The notes beneath the pieces are model-generated. The model ran no database searches and was not told the origin of the DNA. It saw only the letters and a list, made by a program, of their open reading frames with translations. Below are positions 7,810-15,014 of a stretch of DNA of 64,000 nucleotides, piece by piece. Location of the stretch: NCBI GenBank assembly GCA_965140345.1, contig OZ223202.1:50093-114092 (forward strand). The letters are read 5' to 3'. The stretch comes from Candidatus Kapaibacterium sp. GTDB lineage: Bacteria > Bacteroidota > Ignavibacteria > Kapaibacteriales > UBA2268. Position 1 is the first letter of the stretch, and each line of letters begins with the position of its first letter. Made by a program: the position numbers and the translations under genes.

Positions 7810-10200
7810 TTAAATACTTGTTTTTATGCCACAGAATATTGTGAATGGTCTGGTTGGACCATAAATATATCCTGCGTCTCTTTTTAATCCTTTATCAAAA
7901 TCATCCTGGAAGCTGTTCAGAATGTTTTGAACACCAACAAATGCTTTTACATTGTTCTCATGACTTAATTCTACTGTTACCTGAGCGTTTAACTCGAAGA
8001 AAGAAGGTGATTCTTCAAGTTTATCAAATTCTTTTAGTTCATCATCAATCATAAGATAAACGCCATAATGAGGAATAAGCATCGGCCCTGTCAATATACC
8101 TGATAGATTTAATTCTAACTCGTGAAGTGGTGCCCAATTATAAGAGAAGTATCCATACCAGTCCGGAGAGCGAAGCATGTCTGTGGTATAACCTGTTTGC
8201 CCGGGAGCAACTTCACCATCGTTCCACTGCTCAGGATCATCATATTTACTTGATTGAACTGTAAAACCGGTTTTGAAATCCATATCTTCATCAAATAGGA
8301 ATTGAAGTTCAATTGTTCCACCCTGTACAGTTGCTCCACCACCATTTCTTTTTTCTTCTATCATTACTTCTGCATCTTCGTCTGAAATTGCAACATTTAC
8401 AAACACATCATCTAAATGAGTGTTAAAGTATTCAACTGAAATAGAAGTAGGTATATTATTTAATTCGAAAGTATAATCAACTGATCCTCCAAAGCTTAGA
8501 GAGTATTCAGGTTTTAAGTCAGGCGCGTTGACGTGTACTAAAGCTTCTCCGGAAACTTGAGTAATATGCAGATCTTCATCAAATGCCTGAGGAGACCTAA
8601 AACCGGTAGAAAATGTAGCTCTGATATTCAAATCTTCCATCGCTTTATACATTATATTCGCTCTTGGGCTGATTACCATGTCTTCTATAAAGCTATGCTT
8701 GTCAAATCTGGAACCAAACAGGAATGAAAATTCATCAGTTATTGCCCAGTCATCCTGGATATAAATACCGTGATCTCTTGCAAATTGATCAATTGTACGG
8801 TCATAAGCAGGAGCTTTGTCTAAAATATCATCATACGTCAATTCATACCCCATAGTCCACACATGAGAACCTGCCAGCATCAAAGTATGAGTATATTGAA
8901 CACCTCCAACATAAGTTTCATTATCAGTAGTTCCATAAGCGTCATTGAAGTAATCTGAATTCATTTCACTTTTAGCACCATAGAATGTATTTCTGGTAGT
9001 TTGTTGGAATGATGTATAGATAGAAATTTTGTTTGAAGTACCTTCAAAGAACTTATCGTAAGTAATACCACCTGAAATAGTATTATGTCTGGCTGCTTCG
9101 GCAATATTAGCTCTGTGTGGAGGCAAATCAAACTGGTCACCACCTCTTCTATCATCTTTTATGGCGTGAAATTCTAAAGAGAATTTGCTCAGGTGATCCG
9201 GTTTGTAGAATAGTCTGCTACCAAATGTATTCATAGTTAATTCCGGTACTTCTGAGAATCCATCACCATTAGCATCCCAGTGAGTTCTATCTCTATATAA
9301 ACCAAAAACAAAAAGTCCTAAATCTTGAGCATCGTTAATTATGGAAGCATTCATCTGAGCTACAAAATCAGGTGTTGTGCCATCTGTGAATGATTGTGTC
9401 AGAGTTGCATTCATAGTGTTCTCTACCGGGTCTTTTGTAATGATATTAACAACACCACCAACTGCAGAACCGCCATAAAGAGCAGATCCACCACCACGAA
9501 CTACTTCAACTCTTTCTATCATATTTGCAGGTATCTGCTCTAAACCATAAACGCCGTTTAGTGCAGAAAATACTGGACGGCTGTCAATTAGTATTTGAGA
9601 ATATCTGCCTTCAAGACCATTAAGCTTAATTTCAGCAAAACCGCAGTTCTGACACATATTTTCGACTCTAAGGCCAGGCTGGAACTTAATACCGTCGTGA
9701 ATATTTGTAGACTGAGTATTTTCAAAAACTTCAGCACTCATTACTGATATTTTGACAGGAACATCCTGATATATTTTATCAGTTCTTGTAGCAGTTACAA
9801 CTACACTACCTGTGCGTAAGGCTTTATCATTCATTGTGAAGCCAACATGCACTTCATCAGCAAGAGCATCATTTACGATAACTTCCTGTTCTACAGGTTC
9901 TTTGCCGACGCATGTTATTTGTAAGGTATGAGTACCATAAGGTACTTTTTTCAAGTAAAATTCACCTTTGTGATCAACTTTACAACCAAGCGTAGTATTT
10001 TTAATTCTTACTGTTGCACCTATTACAGGCTTGCCTTTATCATCCTTCACAGTACCATGAATTCGATAAAGTTTATTACGCAATTCAGCAGGTACTGCTG
10101 ATTTTGCATTAGAGCTGTTAGAATTTTTAGTGTGAGCAAAACTAACAAATGAAAACAAAAAGAGTGAGAATACGATAGTTACCAAGCTACGTATTGACAT
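7810..10200 (-). CDS. TonB-dependent receptor with carboxypeptidase-regulatory-like N-domain, probably metal uptake
   Basis: Signal peptide, VVVTATR, CQNC motif, IERVEVVRGGGSALYG plug motif, barrel C-terminus; ATG 10200 preferred (AAAGGT RBS). Confidence 0.93.
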   Translation of the reverse strand: MSIRSLVTIVFSLFLFSFVSFAHTKNSNSSNAKSAVPAELRNKLYRIHGTVKDDKGKPVIGATVRIKNTTLGCKVDHKGEFYLKKVPYGTHTLQITCVGKEPVEQEVIVNDALADEVHVGFTMNDKALRTGSVVVTATRTDKIYQDVPVKISVMSAEVFENTQSTNIHDGIKFQPGLRVENMCQNCGFAEIKLNGLEGRYSQILIDSRPVFSALNGVYGLEQIPANMIERVEVVRGGGSALYGGSAVGGVVNIITKDPVENTMNATLTQSFTDGTTPDFVAQMNASIINDAQDLGLFVFGLYRDRTHWDANGDGFSEVPELTMNTFGSRLFYKPDHLSKFSLEFHAIKDDRRGGDQFDLPPHRANIAEAARHNTISGGITYDKFFEGTSNKISIYTSFQQTTRNTFYGAKSEMNSDYFNDAYGTTDNETYVGGVQYTHTLMLAGSHVWTMGYELTYDDILDKAPAYDRTIDQFARDHGIYIQDDWAITDEFSFLFGSRFDKHSFIEDMVISPRANIMYKAMEDLNIRATFSTGFRSPQAFDEDLHITQVSGEALVHVNAPDLKPEYSLSFGGSVDYTFELNNIPTSISVEYFNTHLDDVFVNVAISDEDAEVMIEEKRNGGGATVQGGTIELQFLFDEDMDFKTGFTVQSSKYDDPEQWNDGEVAPGQTGYTTDMLRSPDWYGYFSYNWAPLHELELNLSGILTGPMLIPHYGVYLMIDDELKEFDKLEESPSFFELNAQVTVELSHENNVKAFVGVQNILNSFQDDFDKGLKRDAGYIYGPTRPFTIFCGIKTSI

Positions 10201-10376
10201 AAGAATACCTTTAAATATTATGATATAAATAAATATTATTTCCAAATATCTACACTACCACACAATAGGAACATAGAGGAATCTTCTCTATAGTTAATAG
10301 ACTATAGGGAAAAAACGCAATTATCCATAGTGATAATGCTAAATCAAAACTATCTGGTTACTTTTTGAGGATTTGA

Positions 10377-10751
10377 TTATTTAGAAAGTAAGGCTGGAGG
10401 CGCCCTAAGATGGAAATAAAGGTAATAATCCGGAGTTCTGTAATTAGAGAGTTGCCTGTCGTAAAATCTTCTAATTACCGGGGATAACATCGAAAGAATT
10501 ATATAGATTATCGATAAAACAAGAAATTGGTGCGATATCTTGTCAAATCTCAGAAATTCTTCCTGTGTGTGATTATGTTTACCAAAAGGGCTGTGTTGGT
10601 TTCCATGACTGTCATCTACAGAAAAGTGTGAATGGTAAATTATACGACCATCCAGTGTCTTGTGGTAGTGACCATTGACAGAGAAATTAATAAATACCAA
10701 TAAGATATTGATACCTAAAAGTAAAGCTAATATTCTTTTTGAAATATTAAT
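10377..10751 (-). CDS. His-rich two-TM leader protein ending in a RAPP motif
   Basis: HYH..HSH..H..HNH cluster, second TM segment, LRAPP five codons before the stop; frame open to ATT 10751 with AAGGGG 7 nt upstream (track start TTG 10700). Confidence 0.75.
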   Translation of the reverse strand: MNISKRILALLLGINILLVFINFSVNGHYHKTLDGRIIYHSHFSVDDSHGNQHSPFGKHNHTQEEFLRFDKISHQFLVLSIIYIILSMLSPVIRRFYDRQLSNYRTPDYYLYFHLRAPPALLSK

Positions 10752-11060
10752 ACTTTAGCCCCTTAGTTGCTTGTTTAGTTTTGCCTAAAACAAATTATAA
10801 AAAAAAATCAAGTCTAAAAAGAAGTGTTTTTTTTATATTTGTTTGTAGATTATCTAACGACTGTTCTAATTAAACATAATTATAAAATAGATGAATAAAT
10901 CACTTTGAAATTCATTCATTGAAGTCTAGTAAAATGCTACAACCCTATCTTCATCAATGAAATGTTTATACATCACTTTCGAGGAATACATTTTTAGGTA
11001 ATCTTATTTAAATACTACTTTCTTTATAAAACTATAATTAAATTAAGGTAATTTTAAAAA

Positions 11061-12044
11061 ATGTCTAAAATTTCTGACCAATTAGGTAAAATCAGGGAAT
11101 CATCAGTTACGAAACTGATAGCCTATTATATTTTGATTGCTATTGCAATCCTGATTTTCAGGCAAATTGCTAATGAATATTACGATTCGTTCCAGGTTAA
11201 TGAGTTCGAAAAGGTATACGATTTAGTCATGAAAGGTATGAATATCAGGACTCATACCGACGAATTAATAGTAACTATTATAGCGCTTATTGCCACATTT
11301 ACTTATGCTCTACCAGTAGCCTGGGTTTATGTGATAACTAAAAGAGAAAAAGGCTTTGATGAATCTCTGGTGCAAGCTATAATTCTTTTAGCTGTTATTG
11401 TTACAGGCGTTATGATGGTGGTTCAGGACAGTTTAGCCAGAGCTTTCGGCTTAGTTGCCATATTATCCGCAGTTCGTTATCGGGTAGCTGTCAAGGATAT
11501 TCAGGATGCTACTTATATTTTCCTTGCGATTGCAATAGGAGTAGCAAATGGTCTTAATGTTCCGCATATTGCAATAGTCATGTCCTTTATGGTAAATATA
11601 GTTTATTTGGTATTGTGGAAATGGAAAGTAGGCGACGTTGTAATAAAAAATAAAAAAAGCTTAACAAGTGAAGAAAAGGCTGAAATAAATACAACTTTGA
11701 AAATGTCAGACATCAATTTTTCGAAAGAGAATCTTGCAAAAAAACACAAAATCGCTCTGATTATCATATCCAGGAATATGGAATATATGCCGGAAATAAA
11801 TCTCAAATTTGATGATATACTTGAAAAATGGGAATTCCATAGTGTTGAGAAATTAAACGGCTATGATACAATTTATAAAACTATTGTCCTTTGCAAGGAT
11901 ATCAAAGATAAAGGAAATACTAAGCTGTTTTCTTATCTTGAATCTTTTGGAGAAACGATTCTTTTATGGAAAATTCAACAAGTTAAAAATCCAAAGAAAA
12001 AACAAAAAGAAGGAACTGAGAATGAAGAGCAAACTAATTCCTAA
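11061..12044 (+). CDS. DUF4956-like membrane protein
   Basis: SLARAFGLVAILSAVRYRVAVKD...IFLAIAIGVANG motif. Confidence 0.8.
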   Translation: MSKISDQLGKIRESSVTKLIAYYILIAIAILIFRQIANEYYDSFQVNEFEKVYDLVMKGMNIRTHTDELIVTIIALIATFTYALPVAWVYVITKREKGFDESLVQAIILLAVIVTGVMMVVQDSLARAFGLVAILSAVRYRVAVKDIQDATYIFLAIAIGVANGLNVPHIAIVMSFMVNIVYLVLWKWKVGDVVIKNKKSLTSEEKAEINTTLKMSDINFSKENLAKKHKIALIIISRNMEYMPEINLKFDDILEKWEFHSVEKLNGYDTIYKTIVLCKDIKDKGNTKLFSYLESFGETILLWKIQQVKNPKKKQKEGTENEEQTNS

Positions 12045-12426
12045 AGAGAAGAATGTTGGCAATGATCATAATGATTTGCAGTCGCGCATTGTTTCTACCC
12101 TAGGTATGTTGATCTTATTTATTTTCTCGTTACCTCAGGTTGGCATTAATGATGCGTACCATAGAATATTGCTTTTGGAAATAGCACTTGTGGGTACAGG
12201 TGCACTGGCTTGGGGTATGGTCTTCGGACGTAAAAATATTATGGCAGGTATTGTTGCTCAGGTTGTACCATTGTTTATATATCTAATGCCAGAGTTTCTG
12301 CATCGCACATTAGCAATGATATTGGCTCCAATAGCTGCAATCCATTTGCTGATTTCTATATTTTCGCGAAAATGTATATTTAATTCAATTTTCTCTATAA
12401 ACAGTTATAAACAAAGTGAAAACTAA
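12022..12426 (+). CDS. Small membrane protein (DUF2892/YgaP-like ends)
   Basis: ATG 12022 after AAGGA; KNVG N-terminus, TM helices, CIFNSIFSINS C-terminus. Confidence 0.55.
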   Translation: MKSKLIPKEKNVGNDHNDLQSRIVSTLGMLILFIFSLPQVGINDAYHRILLLEIALVGTGALAWGMVFGRKNIMAGIVAQVVPLFIYLMPEFLHRTLAMILAPIAAIHLLISIFSRKCIFNSIFSINSYKQSEN

Positions 12427-15014
12427 TGATTAAACTACTTTCTGTTATTTCTCTTTTTCTTCTTCCTATTTTGCTTTTTGCTAAGCAGGATAGCGTTAAT
12501 GTTATTCCAGGTAAAGTTTATGACCAATCTGCTTTTCATAAGTTTATTTTCGGGAATACGTGGCGTTCTGCTTGGACAACTGAAATTAAAGTTCCGCTAC
12601 TAGATTTGGACAGTTTTGCCGGAGGTTTAACTCCTATTAAACGAGGTGGCGGTCAACAGACTAAATCATTGCGATTCCAGGGAGCTGACGGTAAAGTTTA
12701 TAAATTCAGATCTATAGAAAAATTTACAGATAAAATTCTTCAGAAAGAGCTACTTAATACTATCATCGAAGTTTTAACAAAGGATATGTTCAGTGCCTCT
12801 CACCCGCTCTCGGCTAAGATGGCTACGCCTATAATCAACTCAGTTGGAATAATGCAGGCTAAACCTTCCATATTTGTAATGCCTGATGATTCTGCTGCAT
12901 TAGGAGAATATTATACCGAATATAAGGGACTACTTGGTACCTTGGAAGTTCATCCGGATGATATACAAGATGATAATATTGAATCTTTCGGTGACGCTGA
13001 CAAAATCTTCGGAACATATAAGCTTTTTGAAAAATTGATGAACGACAATGATAATCAAGTAGATGATCTTGAATTCCTAAAGGCTAGGTTGATTGATGTG
13101 TTTTTAGGCGATTGGGACAGACATACTGATCAATGGCGCTGGGCATTATATAAAGAAGGAAAAAAGAGATATATTAAACCCATACCTCGTGACAGAGATC
13201 AGGCTTTATGTAAGTATGACGGTCTGGTTGGTTTTGGAATTAGAGAAGTAGTACCACAAATTGAATCATGCGATCCTGAGTTTCCCAAAATTTCAGATTT
13301 AACATGGTCTGGCAGGTATTTAGACAGAAAGTTTCTGACAAATATCAATAAAGAAGAATGGGATTCTGTCGCAAACTTTGTACAGAGTAAACTTACAGAT
13401 AGTGTTTTGCAGGAAGCAGTTTCAATACTTCCAAGAGAGATGTATGAAAATTCAGCTGAAAATTTACTTTATACTTTAAAACAACGAAGAGACAGTCTGA
13501 AACATGCTTCTGAAGATTATTATAAAGAAATTGCGAAATATCCTGAATTATGGGGATCTGATAAACCTGAGAAATGTATTATATATTTTATTAATGACTC
13601 TTTGGTCAATGTTAAAATCTATAAAACTAAAGATTTTGATAAAAGAGAAACTCCTATTCCATTTATTGATAGGACTTTCTCGACAAATTATACAAAAGAT
13701 GTAAGAATTTTCCTCTTTGATGGAGATGACGAATGCGTGGTAAATGGTCAGGGAAAAGCTGATATAAAGTTTACAATTCTAGGTGGAAAGGGCAAAGACG
13801 ATTTCAAAGATATATCAAATATAGAACATACTTTCCTCGGCATTTCTTATACTCCAACTCTTGTAGAATTTTGGGATGACGGAAAAAAGACAGATACTGA
13901 ATTAACTGGTGTATCAGTTCACTTGAAAAAAGAACGTAAAAGACCTAAAGATGAGGTTGCATTCTTTGAACCGGAAGTCAGAGATTGGGGACATGACTGG
14001 AAAAAGGGTGTTTGGTTTGATTTAAACTCTGATGATGGCTTGTTTCTTGGCGGAGGGCCTATTTTGTATAGATATAATTTTAATAAGGCTCCTTATGAAA
14101 TAAGACAACATCTTTTTGCCGGATATTCATTCGGTTTGAATGGAGCTAAAGCAGAATATAGTCTAACATTACCTAAATTACTATTTGGTTTTGATCTCAA
14201 CTTTACTACTTACATTTCTGAGCTTGATCAGTCTCATTTCTTTGGTTACGCAAACCAGGCAAGAAATGCTGATGATTTGGTGAAAGACTATTACAAAATC
14301 AATCAGACAATGTTTCATGCCAATATAAGATTAATTGAAAGGTTCTCTGATAATATTAATCTATATGCAGGTATGAATGTTCGTTTTTCAGATTTGGATA
14401 CTATTGCCGGCACTTATGTAGCAGATAATAAGATATATGGGAATAAAAATTTGTGGCTTCTTGATGGTGTGGTTGGAATAGAAGCAGATTATAGAGATAA
14501 TATTTTATATCCTGAATATGGCTTTTTTGCAAAGGTGGAAGATCGATATACAAGTAAAGTTTTTGATAATGAGTATGATTACGGTAACGTATCATTTGAT
14601 ATGCGAGGCTATTATACATTAAATCTACACAAGAAAGAAACTATTGCTCTAAAGGTGTTTGGATCTCATAATGTGGGATCATACCCGTTTTTTGATGCAT
14701 CATTCTTAGGAGGGTTGGAATCTTTACGAGGTTATTATAGATATAGATTCGCTTCGACAACAACAATAGGTTTAAATTTAGAAACCAGAATACAACTTTC
14801 AAGATTTAGATTTATAGTACCGGGTAATTTTGGGGTTGCAGCATTTTATGACAGAGGAAGATATTATTTTGAAAGCGAAGCTTCTGATTTTTACGACTCT
14901 TTTGGAGTGGGTGCATTCTTCACTTTTGTTGAAGATGAAAATGTAATATCTTTTTACTACAGCTTAGACGGTGAAGTAAATTCATTTTACTTTAGCTGGG
15001 GATTTCCATTTTAA
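12426..15014 (+). CDS. Omp85/BamA-family outer-membrane protein with N-terminal atypical-kinase-like domain
   Basis: Signal peptide; GGGQQT, VYKF, DWDRHTDQW, PIPRDRD; C-terminal LGG..LRGY..YRF, FYDRGR and terminal WGFPF. Confidence 0.85.
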   Translation: MIKLLSVISLFLLPILLFAKQDSVNVIPGKVYDQSAFHKFIFGNTWRSAWTTEIKVPLLDLDSFAGGLTPIKRGGGQQTKSLRFQGADGKVYKFRSIEKFTDKILQKELLNTIIEVLTKDMFSASHPLSAKMATPIINSVGIMQAKPSIFVMPDDSAALGEYYTEYKGLLGTLEVHPDDIQDDNIESFGDADKIFGTYKLFEKLMNDNDNQVDDLEFLKARLIDVFLGDWDRHTDQWRWALYKEGKKRYIKPIPRDRDQALCKYDGLVGFGIREVVPQIESCDPEFPKISDLTWSGRYLDRKFLTNINKEEWDSVANFVQSKLTDSVLQEAVSILPREMYENSAENLLYTLKQRRDSLKHASEDYYKEIAKYPELWGSDKPEKCIIYFINDSLVNVKIYKTKDFDKRETPIPFIDRTFSTNYTKDVRIFLFDGDDECVVNGQGKADIKFTILGGKGKDDFKDISNIEHTFLGISYTPTLVEFWDDGKKTDTELTGVSVHLKKERKRPKDEVAFFEPEVRDWGHDWKKGVWFDLNSDDGLFLGGGPILYRYNFNKAPYEIRQHLFAGYSFGLNGAKAEYSLTLPKLLFGFDLNFTTYISELDQSHFFGYANQARNADDLVKDYYKINQTMFHANIRLIERFSDNINLYAGMNVRFSDLDTIAGTYVADNKIYGNKNLWLLDGVVGIEADYRDNILYPEYGFFAKVEDRYTSKVFDNEYDYGNVSFDMRGYYTLNLHKKETIALKVFGSHNVGSYPFFDASFLGGLESLRGYYRYRFASTTTIGLNLETRIQLSRFRFIVPGNFGVAAFYDRGRYYFESEASDFYDSFGVGAFFTFVEDENVISFYYSLDGEVNSFYFSWGFPF

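Follow-up and report, generated by a model that had tools for sequence, protein, structure and literature searches.

A histidine-rich leader family with a terminal RAPP motif that probably regulates TonB-dependent receptor genes in cis

A close counterpart in layout of the locus presented here is CruR (Bp2923) of Bordetella pertussis, a DUF2946 (PF11162) protein with a CxxC motif and a RAPP motif, which is the leader of cruR-crtA(bfrG)-bp2921 and places a TonB transporter under the control of copper (PMC9426467). Stalling on CruR has been reported in vitro (PMC12992588), and its RAPP motif is reported to be required in vivo (PMC9426467). Both RAPP and RGPP stall ribosomes (PMC12992588). Upstream ORFs (uORFs) with RAPP are 29.6-fold enriched ahead of TonB-dependent receptors (5450, vs. 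722 for AAPP; PMC12992588 and its source data, which hold 3,720 "TonB" rows). A further described system is CutF of Rhodobacter capsulatus, which masks the ribosome-binding site (RBS) of the next gene over a short spacer and whose stall is prolonged by copper (PMC9973294). The "CutF-like" set comprises 5,334 proteins, 19% of them from Bacteroidota, with TonB-type neighbours frequent (PMC9973294; bioRxiv 10.1101/2025.02.05.636593); the neighbours of its His-only clusters, SSN 14 and 17, are HupE/UreJ (PMC9973294). The principle of RAPP stalling leaders ahead of TonB receptors is thus already published, in CruR, CutF and a 2025 survey with thousands of RAPP uORFs. A first-pass annotation of our locus had drawn on CruR, and its account of DUF2946, CxxC plus RAPP and copper control of a TonB receptor is accurate as judged by PMC9426467.

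The locus lies in a 64,000-nucleotide stretch of DNA from Candidatus Kapaibacterium sp. (contig OZ223202.1 of assembly GCA_965140345.1), hereafter the window; its features are collected in Table 1. The first-pass annotation had described a small ORF with a hydrophobic N-terminus, a His cluster, a second transmembrane segment and LRAPP near the stop, and each of these is present in the sequence, on the minus strand. The protein has no Cys, as had been claimed, and 10 His, eight of which lie in residues 28–61 (HYH, HSH, SH, QH, HNH). After RAPP, only A-L-L-S-K (5 codons) precedes the stop. The assignment of the ribosomal P and A sites at RAPP is borrowed from the CruR toeprint (PMC12992588). An AF2 model of the leader (pLDDT 81.8) is a two-helix hairpin with a beta-hairpin loop, the first helix spanning residues 2–25 and the beta-hairpin residues 27–31/37–41. 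Neither Pfam nor NCBIfam assigned the leader to a family, and a Foldseek search of the model against the PDB gave no match at E<=0.001. We take the ORF to be, in all probability, a RAPP arrest peptide that regulates in cis as a leader, and likely one that senses a metal.

Table 1. Coordinates of the leader, the receptor and the features between and around them (positions in the window)
Feature	Position	Strand	Remarks
Leader ORF	10377..10751	minus	124 codons + stop, frame read from ATT at 10751
Stop codon of leader ORF	10379-10377	minus	
Helix 1 (residues ~5-25)	10677..10739	minus	predicted by hydropathy; signal-anchor, K and R in front
His-rich loop	10569..10670	minus	HxH x3 (H28/H30, H40/H42, H59/H61) + G35
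Helix 2 (residues ~75-93)	10473..10529	minus	predicted by hydropathy
RAPP codons AGG GCG CCT CCA	10395..10406	minus	putative arrest site; P-site CCT, A-site CCA
C-rich, G-poor leader ORF end	10374..10451	minus	C 28%, G 10% in 78-nt window
In-frame TAA (10757-10755) and AAGGGG Shine-Dalgarno-like box (10764-10759)	10755..10764	minus	box 7 nt ahead of ATT
TonB-dependent receptor, 796 aa	7810..10200	minus	CarboxypepD_reg-like domain, plug, barrel; PF00593 4.3e-31, PF07715 4.1e-22, PF13715 3.7e-17
C-Q-N-C in receptor plug (residues 183-186)	9643..9654	minus	
Leader-receptor spacer, 176 nt	10201..10376	minus	poorly conserved among four relatives
Hairpin CTATAGT-N6-ACTATAG	10288..10307	minus	7 bp, A/T-rich; present in predicted fold

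A word-indexed protein search found two close relatives of the leader, and a scan of genome contigs found just three; an exhaustive protein search revealed a whole family of 201 cluster representatives with no Pfam model. The window leader matches the family profile with an hmmsearch E of 2.5e-36. The distribution of the family is patchy: members turned up in 15 genomes when 401 were sampled across the phylum, and in 19 when 401 were sampled across the class. Among 149 aligned sequences with a mean column identity of 18%, H28, H42, H61, P118 and P119 are invariant, and H30, G35, H40, H59 and R116 are at least 90% conserved. R[AG]PP stands near the C-terminus in 130 of 151 members (RAPP in 105, RGPP in 25), and another 18 carry a different xxPP. 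The non-strict variants include HAPP, KAPP, RSPP and RPPP, along with RAPS (three genomes), NAPP, KSPP, RASP and one RAP-stop. Only 41 of 30,200 shuffled family sequences contained R[AG]PP anywhere; therefore, the terminal motif exceeds what is expected by chance. The tail behind the motif is 1–13 residues long, most often 2–3. The codons of RAPP vary synonymously in relatives (GCG/GCA, CCT/CCC, CCA/CCT), and thus the constraint acts on the peptide.

The distance between the third HxH and the Arg of the motif is nearly fixed. In at least 136 of 146 members it is 51–56 residues: 54 in 73 members, 53 in 33, 51 in 22, 55 in 6, and 56 and 52 in two each, a tally that adds up to 138. The intervening sequence is free. 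Helix 2 is hydrophobic in 127 of the 146 members and missing as a hydrophobic helix in 19; where it ends, this is mostly 24–26 residues ahead of the Arg. CxxC occurs in none of 151 members, and 55 of the 151 are Cys-free. For the 120 members with helix 2, the net charge is +2.1 at the N-terminus, -1.15 in the loop and +3.3 in the tail, a distribution that fits a periplasmic His loop by the positive-inside rule and is compatible with the first-pass proposal of sensing during export. Comparison across the family shows the constrained parts to be a predicted signal-anchor helix, a six-His loop (3 x HxH), a linker whose length is kept but whose sequence varies, usually in the form of a putative second membrane helix, and R-A/G-P-P, typically two to five residues ahead of the stop.

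Of 31 loci whose downstream genes could be read, 29 have a TonB receptor gene in one of the first two places after the leader. It is first in 26, second in three, and another gene is found in two; of the receptor-first loci, 25 were Pfam-scanned and one (L004) was judged by its likeness to L003. Sequence comparison thus shows the family to be placed, near-constantly, just upstream of a same-strand gene predicted to encode a TonB receptor. Since every His of the three HxH pairs reaches 90% conservation or more, and R[AG]PP and receptor adjacency are maintained as counted above, the three kinds of conservation that the first-pass annotation had proposed as checks all hold. Its spacer length and its description of a CQNC-type receptor were also verified. 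The receptors that follow family members form one subfamily (33–42% identity) with a conserved plug CxxC, the two Cys being kept in 15 and 14 of 17. A PDB sequence search of the window receptor gave matches of the CirA, BtuB, PhuR and PfeA type; these are generic to the plug, and hence no substrate call follows from them. Among solved structures it comes closest to the catecholate receptor CirA, in the plug region alone. Past the receptor there is no recurrent partner gene, save a thioredoxin-like gene in two loci. One family locus precedes a CusB/AcrB/OEP-type RND efflux system, and the genome of the window also encodes a paralog of the leader, 30% identical and ending in RGPP, which stands first in an operon of the order HmuY - TonB receptor - HmuY.

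The window leader and its family share several properties with CruR. Both are small exported or membrane-targeted uORFs with RAPP a few residues from the stop, and both keep a fixed distance between ligand motif and RAPP (45 residues in CruR, PMC9426467; 51–56 in the family). The spacer to the TonB-dependent transporter is 162 nt for CruR and 176 nt in the window, and the end of the ORF is C-rich and G-poor in both. There are also differences. In place of CxxC, or any Cys, the window leader has three HxH pairs; a second, predicted membrane helix usually separates the sensor from RAPP in the family; the receptor belongs to another subfamily, with the plug CxxC, and no PepSY_TM gene stands behind it; and CruR is from Proteobacteria, whereas the family is from a Bacteroidota/Chlorobiota-like phylum. 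PF11162 did not match the window protein at E<=1 or any of 149 family members at E<=0.1, and a genome-wide PF11162 search found none in genome G000 and none at the loci of the leader family. The phylum also has DUF2946-like leaders of the Cys type, and an hhalign comparison of the family profile with 11 of them gave a probability of 94.1% (E 1.3e-7, 112 columns), with RAPP, helix 1 and the first HxH in register. Such a score can be raised by membrane helices and by a common end motif. The result may point to a distant kinship of the family with DUF2946.

The family also resembles the "TonB-related" class of RAPP/RGPP uORFs in PMC12992588, whose members end in RAPP/RGPP, carry a localisation signal and are followed by the gene of a TonB-dependent receptor. 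That survey was motif-based; it is not known to describe the sensor motifs of the TonB class or to mention a six-His family, a ruler or a two-helix topology. With CutF, the family shares a co-translationally exported sensor, a periplasm-exposed ligand motif and a Pro-rich C-terminal stall, all three predicted in the family. By its TonB receptor neighbours it is set apart from the only His-only clusters given in the main text of PMC9973294, although it may be among the 29 clusters of that study. In the protein atlas, the named cluster closest to the family (0.93) is DUF6769 (PF20558) of Bacteroidota; its proteins are likewise short, begin with a helix, contain a run of His and terminate in G-L-R-A-P-P (three loci). 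Unlike the family, DUF6769 has a PHHHH run and Cys and precedes a gene for a His-rich lipoprotein rather than a receptor, and the two occupy separate places in the same genomes. PF20558 did not match the window protein, and 3 of 149 family members matched it weakly (best E 0.0038).

How a stall might be passed on to the receptor was sought in the spacer. The CTATAGT/ACTATAG hairpin of the first-pass annotation exists and appears in the predicted fold; it is weakly conserved in relatives (5 aligned pairs). In the window, no intrinsic terminator and no RBS-masking helix were found, the single-sequence fold of the spacer is not significant (z = -1.2), and the stall site is not predicted to pair with the start of the receptor (0.01). 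Thus the term "attenuator" finds no support here. An alignment of the spacers of four relatives gave weak conserved structure (-13.5 kcal/mol). An 8-bp match between leader codons (10424-10417) and the AAAGG box of the receptor was dropped, being lost in L003/L004 and absent from the ensemble. Judged by pair probability, 7 of 18 loci have a stall site that would pair with the receptor start region, and a stall-mask model gave an accessibility gain in 4 of 18 (both raw predictions; L025, where the frame of the leader continues into the receptor gene, was left out). Pairing of the CutF type is accordingly a feature predicted for part of the family and not for the window. In 17 of 18 loci, C exceeds G over the final 150 nt of the leader ORF, which is compatible with a Rho loading site; amino-acid composition alone could explain the bias. 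An operator search upstream of the leader yielded an inverted repeat with mismatches (10891-10919) and a block of conserved sequence ahead of the ORF, neither of which could be assigned to a regulator.

Herein, we describe how such a leader could work. If CruR and CutF are a guide, the ribosome would stall when the codon of the first Pro occupies the P site. During the stall, the third HxH would be ~54–57 residues from the peptidyl-transferase centre, roughly the length that spans the exit tunnel and the translocon. Thus the His loop would already be exposed in the periplasm at a time when helix 2 has yet to leave the tunnel. A divalent metal on the His loop would then alter the pulling force on the nascent chain and change the duration of the stall. 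A stalled ribosome would mean that receptor expression is on, and release that it is off. For an uptake receptor the sign of CruR is the more sensible: metal present, release, receptor off. The locus ahead of the RND efflux system would require the opposite regulatory sign. In the window, the read-out is most likely CruR-like, in that ribosome occupancy of the C-rich, G-poor ORF end would oppose Rho; this is favoured because neither a terminator nor a start-masking helix is predicted. It is a guess at this step, since a terminator, significant structure and stall-site pairing with the receptor start were all looked for and not found. In case of the family members with predicted stall-site pairing, a CutF/SecM-like read-out may apply. 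A more specific and tentative proposal, possible though on the doubtful side, is a force-gated transmembrane metal sensor with a ruler. At the RAPP arrest, the 51–56-residue linker would set the third HxH at the periplasmic mouth of the translocon, and helix 2, its end ~27–29 residues from the peptidyl-transferase centre, would be poised to pull. A metal other than copper (Zn, Ni, Co or Fe) on the six His would decide release; one design would serve different receptor types, in this lineage from an ATT start.

This start calls for comment. Upstream of helix 1, the window leader has no ATG, GTG or TTG; its sole canonical start is a TTG at 10700, the use of which would delete helix 1. The in-frame TAA aligns with the TTG start of the relative at locus L005. 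In the contigs of a second study (depth 33–97), only 3 of 751 positions differ and the TAA is unchanged; since independent contigs carry it too, it is not an assembly error. The leader of the window therefore probably starts at the near-cognate ATT at 10751. This ATT is also where the frame of the first-pass annotation begins. The loss of every canonical start ahead of helix 1, with a genuine TAA at the site of the relative's TTG, could also mean that the leader is a decaying relic whose regulation is gone in this genome. To this we give a slim chance. The 124-codon frame is otherwise intact and keeps every family-invariant residue, and the sole difference in the leader ORF of the second population, at 10608, is synonymous. 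The AAGGGG box ahead of ATT is comparable to the AAAGG box ahead of the receptor ATG (10200), and low translation of the leader may be tolerable, CruR itself being reported as weakly translated (PMC9426467).

Other readings concern what the leader senses and whether it acts in cis. The first-pass annotation named Ni, Co or Zn as the ligand; no evidence selects a metal, and the paralog heads an operon of HmuY type, possibly for haem. The same arrest switch might instead read iron or haem, as this paralog, the CirA likeness of the receptor plug and the ability of His pairs to ligate haem or Fe(II) would have it. HmuY-family membership is, however, no proof of haem binding, the conserved plug CxxC is not a known haem feature, and both the RND efflux locus and the thioredoxin-like gene in two loci speak against it. 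Nothing in the data discriminates between metals; we hold iron or haem to be rather unlikely. It is distinctly unlikely that the leader acts in trans, as a stable metal-binding protein of the inner membrane that assists the receptor as accessory, chaperone or signal relay, with RAPP in a structural or docking role. A confident two-helix AF2 model with its beta-hairpin loop, six His in a topology suited to a periplasm-facing metal site and tight synteny, often a mark of physical partners, agree with it. Against it, the sole constrained feature of the tail is R-A/G-P-P, 1–13 residues from the end and behind a linker that is constant in length but not in sequence, which is the signature of arrest peptides and unlike docking tails; helix 2 is missing in 19 of 146 members. 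In addition, proteomes are reported to avoid RAPP and RGPP because of stalling (PMC12992588), and CruR and CutF, alike in layout, act in cis (PMC9426467, PMC9973294). It is hardly credible that the leader serves to monitor Sec/YidC-dependent insertion in the manner of SecM, MifM or ApdA. A membrane-targeting helix and a C-terminal RAPP are what such a monitor would have, but the genes downstream of family leaders are a TonB receptor (29/31 loci), HmuY or an RND efflux system and never a Sec or YidC component, and six conserved His have no role in monitors of this kind.

In conclusion, a cis-acting RAPP leader, probably metal-sensing, remains our preferred reading, and its family, so far unnamed, represents a variant with His as the only ligands and with two helices. 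To our knowledge, post-transcriptional metal sensing by a nascent peptide has been demonstrated only for copper and only with Cys-based sensors (CruR, CutF). With its strict distance from sensor to stall and a predicted periplasmic loop, the family would be a clean test case of whether other metals can be read by the same principle, and also of how binding outside the membrane reaches the ribosome. For annotators, it offers a signature for a gene that is now labelled "hypothetical" or overlooked entirely, and it flags a TonB receptor subfamily marked by the plug CxxC.

The small histidine-rich ORF upstream of the TonB-dependent receptor gene is a single open frame bounded by two in-frame stops, and its translation from the ATT codon gives a cysteine-free protein of 124 residues. 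The ORF is followed after 176 nt by a same-strand gene whose product, a TonB-dependent receptor, has Pfam domains of the CarboxypepD_reg-like, plug and barrel types. The first-pass annotation had described this leader correctly in every detail, the parts of the ORF, the RAPP, the spacer and the receptor all being found, but had not mentioned that the frame lacks a canonical start. A search of Pfam and NCBIfam gave no family match for the leader.

Features of the leader and its surroundings in the window
Feature	Position	Strand	Description
Upstream in-frame stop	10757–10755	minus	TAA
Probable start	10751	minus	ATT
Internal TTG	10700	minus	only ATG/GTG/TTG in the frame
Hydrophobic helix 1	residues ~5–25	minus	K/R-flanked
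Polar loop	HYH 28–30, HSH 40–42, HNH 59–61	minus	eight His, these pairs among them
Hydrophobic helix 2	residues ~75–93	minus
Basic tail	C-terminal end	minus	L-R-A-P-P-A-L-L-S-K
RAPP codons	10406–10395	minus
Leader stop	10379–10377	minus
Receptor start	10200	minus	ATG
Inverted repeat	upstream region 10765–10850		A/T-rich, 22 nt
Imperfect inverted repeat	10891–10919		ATGAATAAAT/ATTCATTCAT
DUF4956 membrane protein gene	11061–12044	plus	divergent from the leader
Omp85-superfamily protein	12426–15014	plus	beyond the DUF4956 gene

A word-indexed protein search recovered two close relatives of the leader, and an exhaustive search returned 201 cluster representatives (E ≤ 0.001), nearly all of 100–140 residues and 25–40% identical. 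An xxPP motif lies within the last 30 residues in 148 of 151 family proteins (RAPP in 105, RGPP in 25, HAPP in 5, RSPP in 4, KAPP in 4, RPPP in 3, other forms in two) and is followed by 1–13, mostly 2–3, residues. The three proteins that miss it comprise two truncated ones and one with the motif inside an over-long frame. When family sequences were shuffled, R[AG]PP occurred anywhere in 41 of 30,200. Despite a mean column identity of 18% in an alignment of 149 sequences, H28, H42, H61, P118 and P119 are invariant, and H30, G35, H40, H59 and R116 show conservation of 90% or more. Both the histidine cluster, with its three HxH pairs, and the RAPP/RGPP end thus proved to be conserved. Like the window protein, 55 of the 151 members lack cysteine altogether, and none has a CxxC. 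Synonymous differences separate the RAPP codons of the four closest relatives, and therefore it is the peptide that is conserved and not the RNA. Further variants were seen at individual loci: R-A-P-S at the motif position in L073, L075 and L076 (three genera of one family), and N-A-P-P, R-A-P followed directly by a stop, and K-S-P-P across L072, L079 and L028. Locus L025 has R-A-S-P in a frame that continues into the receptor gene, and may hold a degenerate leader.

The missing canonical start bears on whether the window copy is intact. Relatives start at ATG or TTG, a few codons upstream of the window's ATT, and the TTG of one of them (L005) aligns with the window's TAA. No ATG, GTG or TTG precedes helix 1 in the window frame (start region 10743–10764), and starting at the internal TTG would remove this helix. 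A decaying copy is a minor rival reading of the window leader. We consider the ATT to be the probable start, since an AAGGGG box lies 7 nt before it (compare AAAGG before the receptor ATG) and since contigs from a second study, at a depth of 33–97, leave both TAA and ATT unchanged. Over 751 positions these contigs show 3 differences from the window, and the sole one within the ORF, at 10608, is synonymous.

Gene order was compared at 33 loci: the window, three relatives from MAGs (titled Chlorobiota, Candidatus Kapaibacterium and 'uncultured bacterium'), the paralog that the source genome carries, and 14 loci each from a phylum sample and a class sample of 401 genomes each. A contig edge cuts off two of them, leaving 31 readable loci; the window and L003–L005 are close kin and were counted as one lineage. 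A receptor with CarboxypepD_reg and plug (and in part barrel) domains is the first downstream same-strand gene in 26 of the 31 (25 scanned with Pfam, L004 assigned from its likeness to L003). It is the second in three, after an HmuY-like gene at the paralog and after unknown ORFs of 160 and 175 aa at L078 and L080. The expected adjacency was therefore found in 29 of 31 loci, with leader–receptor spacers of 38–186 nt. At L031 the leader precedes a CusB/HlyD–AcrB–OEP efflux system beside an IS21 IstB gene, and at L077 an unknown 399-aa ORF. The family is patchy, occurring in 15/401 genomes of the phylum sample and 19/401 of the class sample, the source genome included. Fifteen of 17 aligned downstream receptors form one subfamily, 33–42% identical to the window's outside the close kin; those of the paralog and L036 are of other types. 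Of the two cysteines of a plug Cys-x-x-Cys, one is retained in 15 of the 17 receptors and the other in 14. Comparison of the receptor with solved structures yielded generic plug matches only, and the genes beyond it included no recurrent third gene indicating a substrate.

Several neighbouring features were also observed. The paralog (contig C1, 326430–326789; L023, 5998–6369) is 30% identical, has the same three HxH pairs and ends in L-R-G-P-P plus five residues; it heads an operon in which genes for two HmuY-like proteins, the first bearing a T9SS sorting tail, flank that of the other-type TonB receptor. A thioredoxin-like gene (Thioredoxin_2/7, DsbH-like) directly follows the receptor at L024 (4145–4606) and L034 (8885–9355), and may relate to the conserved plug Cys-x-x-Cys. 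The L005 leader, like the window's, adjoins a DUF4956-type gene (327 aa). Upstream of the leader, in the region 10765–10850, a block reading TATAATTTGTTTTAGGC..ACTAAACA in the window and L005 is conserved in all four relatives, with single-base differences in L003 and L004. This block and both inverted repeats are possible promoter or operator elements.

No part of the protein is less conserved than the stretch from the third HxH to the Arg of the motif, yet the length of this stretch is nearly fixed: of 146 members measured, it spans 54 residues in 73, 53 in 33, 51 in 22 and 55 in 6. It contains a hydrophobic helix in 127 of them, ending most often 24–26 residues before the Arg. Since helix 2 is missing in 19 members, length rather than the helix is the common denominator of this ruler. 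A fixed ligand-to-RAPP distance is shared with the copper-sensing leader CruR, in which 45 residues are reported between CxxC and RAPP (PMC9426467). Averaged over 120 members that have helix 2, the segment ahead of helix 1 carries a net charge of +2.1, the His loop one of −1.15 and the tail one of +3.3. By the positive-inside rule a positively charged flank stays cytoplasmic, so this pattern predicts a periplasmic His loop and a cytoplasmic RAPP tail. From the family alignment AlphaFold2 predicted (pLDDT 81.8) a helix at 2–25, a β-hairpin at 27–31/37–41 in which the first and second HxH pairs lie, a long helix at 63–102 and an unstructured tail; Foldseek with this model found no solved relative.

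CruR, a DUF2946 protein with CxxC and RAPP, is described as controlling a TonB transporter through copper relief of arrest and Rho-dependent termination (PMC9426467), and its arrest was reported in vitro in 2025 (PMC12992588). CutF is reported to sense periplasmic copper during SRP-dependent export and to unmask the RBS of the next gene (PMC9973294; bioRxiv 10.1101/2025.02.05.636593). The former study gives 5,334 CutF-like proteins, 19% of them in Bacteroidota; the set often has TonB-type neighbours and includes two His-only clusters with HupE/UreJ neighbours (PMC9973294). Ahead of 'TonB-dependent receptor' genes, RAPP uORFs show a 29.6-fold enrichment (5450 RAPP vs 722 AAPP cases; PMC12992588 source data). 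A full-text search for the His family matched only the CruR, CutF and RAPP-uORF work and a paper on the CrtA receptor (PMC12914433), whose matching text makes no mention of it. The family lacks the sequence-defining features of DUF2946 (profile match and CxxC) and shares its architectural ones. Profile–profile comparison with 11 Cys-type leaders of the phylum gave 94.1% probability and aligned the two at helix 1, at the first HxH and at RAPP; membrane helices inflate scores of this sort, and with that reservation a distant kinship seems probable. We therefore class the family among the known RAPP leaders, as a His-only variant, rather than within DUF2946. DUF6769 proteins (L081, 1486–1905; L082, 1462–1917; L083, 1453–1911) have a PHHHH run and Cys and end in G-L-R-A-P-P plus 2–4 residues, and each gene precedes one for a His-rich lipoprotein of 400–470 aa; a control run was positive in Bacteroides thetaiotaomicron. 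From its RAPP end and gene position, DUF6769 seems to be a further RAPP-leader family of Bacteroidota that has been curated separately.

For the step from stall to receptor expression there is little evidence. The window spacer has no terminator-like site, the stretch from ORF end through spacer to receptor start folds no better than shuffled sequence (z = −1.2), and the consensus fold of the four relatives' spacers is weak. The earlier interpretation, an arrest leader gating the receptor, is partly supported: by the conserved leader and synteny, but not in its attenuator read-out or its choice of Ni, Co or Zn. We modelled a stall at 18 loci (L025 excluded), placing the motif's first Pro codon in the ribosomal P site, as toeprinted for CruR (PMC12992588), masking −13 to +15 nt and comparing accessibility of the receptor initiation region. 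Pairing between the masked nucleotides and this region is predicted in 7/18 loci (summed pair probability 2.4–12.2), with an accessibility gain of 0.18–0.28 in four of these (L024, L032, L034, L036); the window and its kin showed neither pairing (0.01–0.5) nor gain. C exceeds G in the last 150 nt of the leader in 17/18 loci, and in the first 300 nt of the receptor in just 3/18; the last 78 nt of the window leader are 28% C and 10% G. The C-over-G leader end resembles the 'bubble' reported to mark the cruR Rho loading site (PMC9426467), and may be a simple effect of a His/Pro/Leu/Ser-rich peptide. At L033, of higher GC, a canonical GC-rich hairpin and T-run seen by eye a few nt after the leader stop (~1180–1205) look like an intrinsic terminator, which AT-rich members lack. 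Given this hairpin against the signals of other members, the family may use more than one read-out; the CutF authors report the same of CutF-like proteins in general (PMC9973294). The receptor's first 30 nt (10171–10200) are identical in the four relatives, where the preceding spacer is loosely alignable, and can form a small hairpin of 6 pairs, all kept.

We think it rather likely that the leader is a nascent-chain sensor of the RAPP-leader kind, given its conserved parts, the ruler, the topology signal and the synteny; the single steps are each less certain. Translation would arrest at R-A-P|P, with the His loop already outside the ribosome and helix 2 still in the tunnel. With helix 1 engaged by the translocon, the loop would lie at or beyond the periplasmic opening, where a divalent metal bound by the six His would fold it, alter the pull on the chain and change the lifetime of the arrest. 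An arrested ribosome would keep the receptor gene expressed and its release would shut the receptor down; for the window we infer a Rho-type read-out. For the efflux-pump locus L031 the direction would have to be reversed, as it is in CutF. In conclusion, the window ORF is genuine and conserved and is probably a regulatory leader whose kind is known; the principle of RAPP-leader sensing is already published, and the proposed six-His sensor module is its new part.
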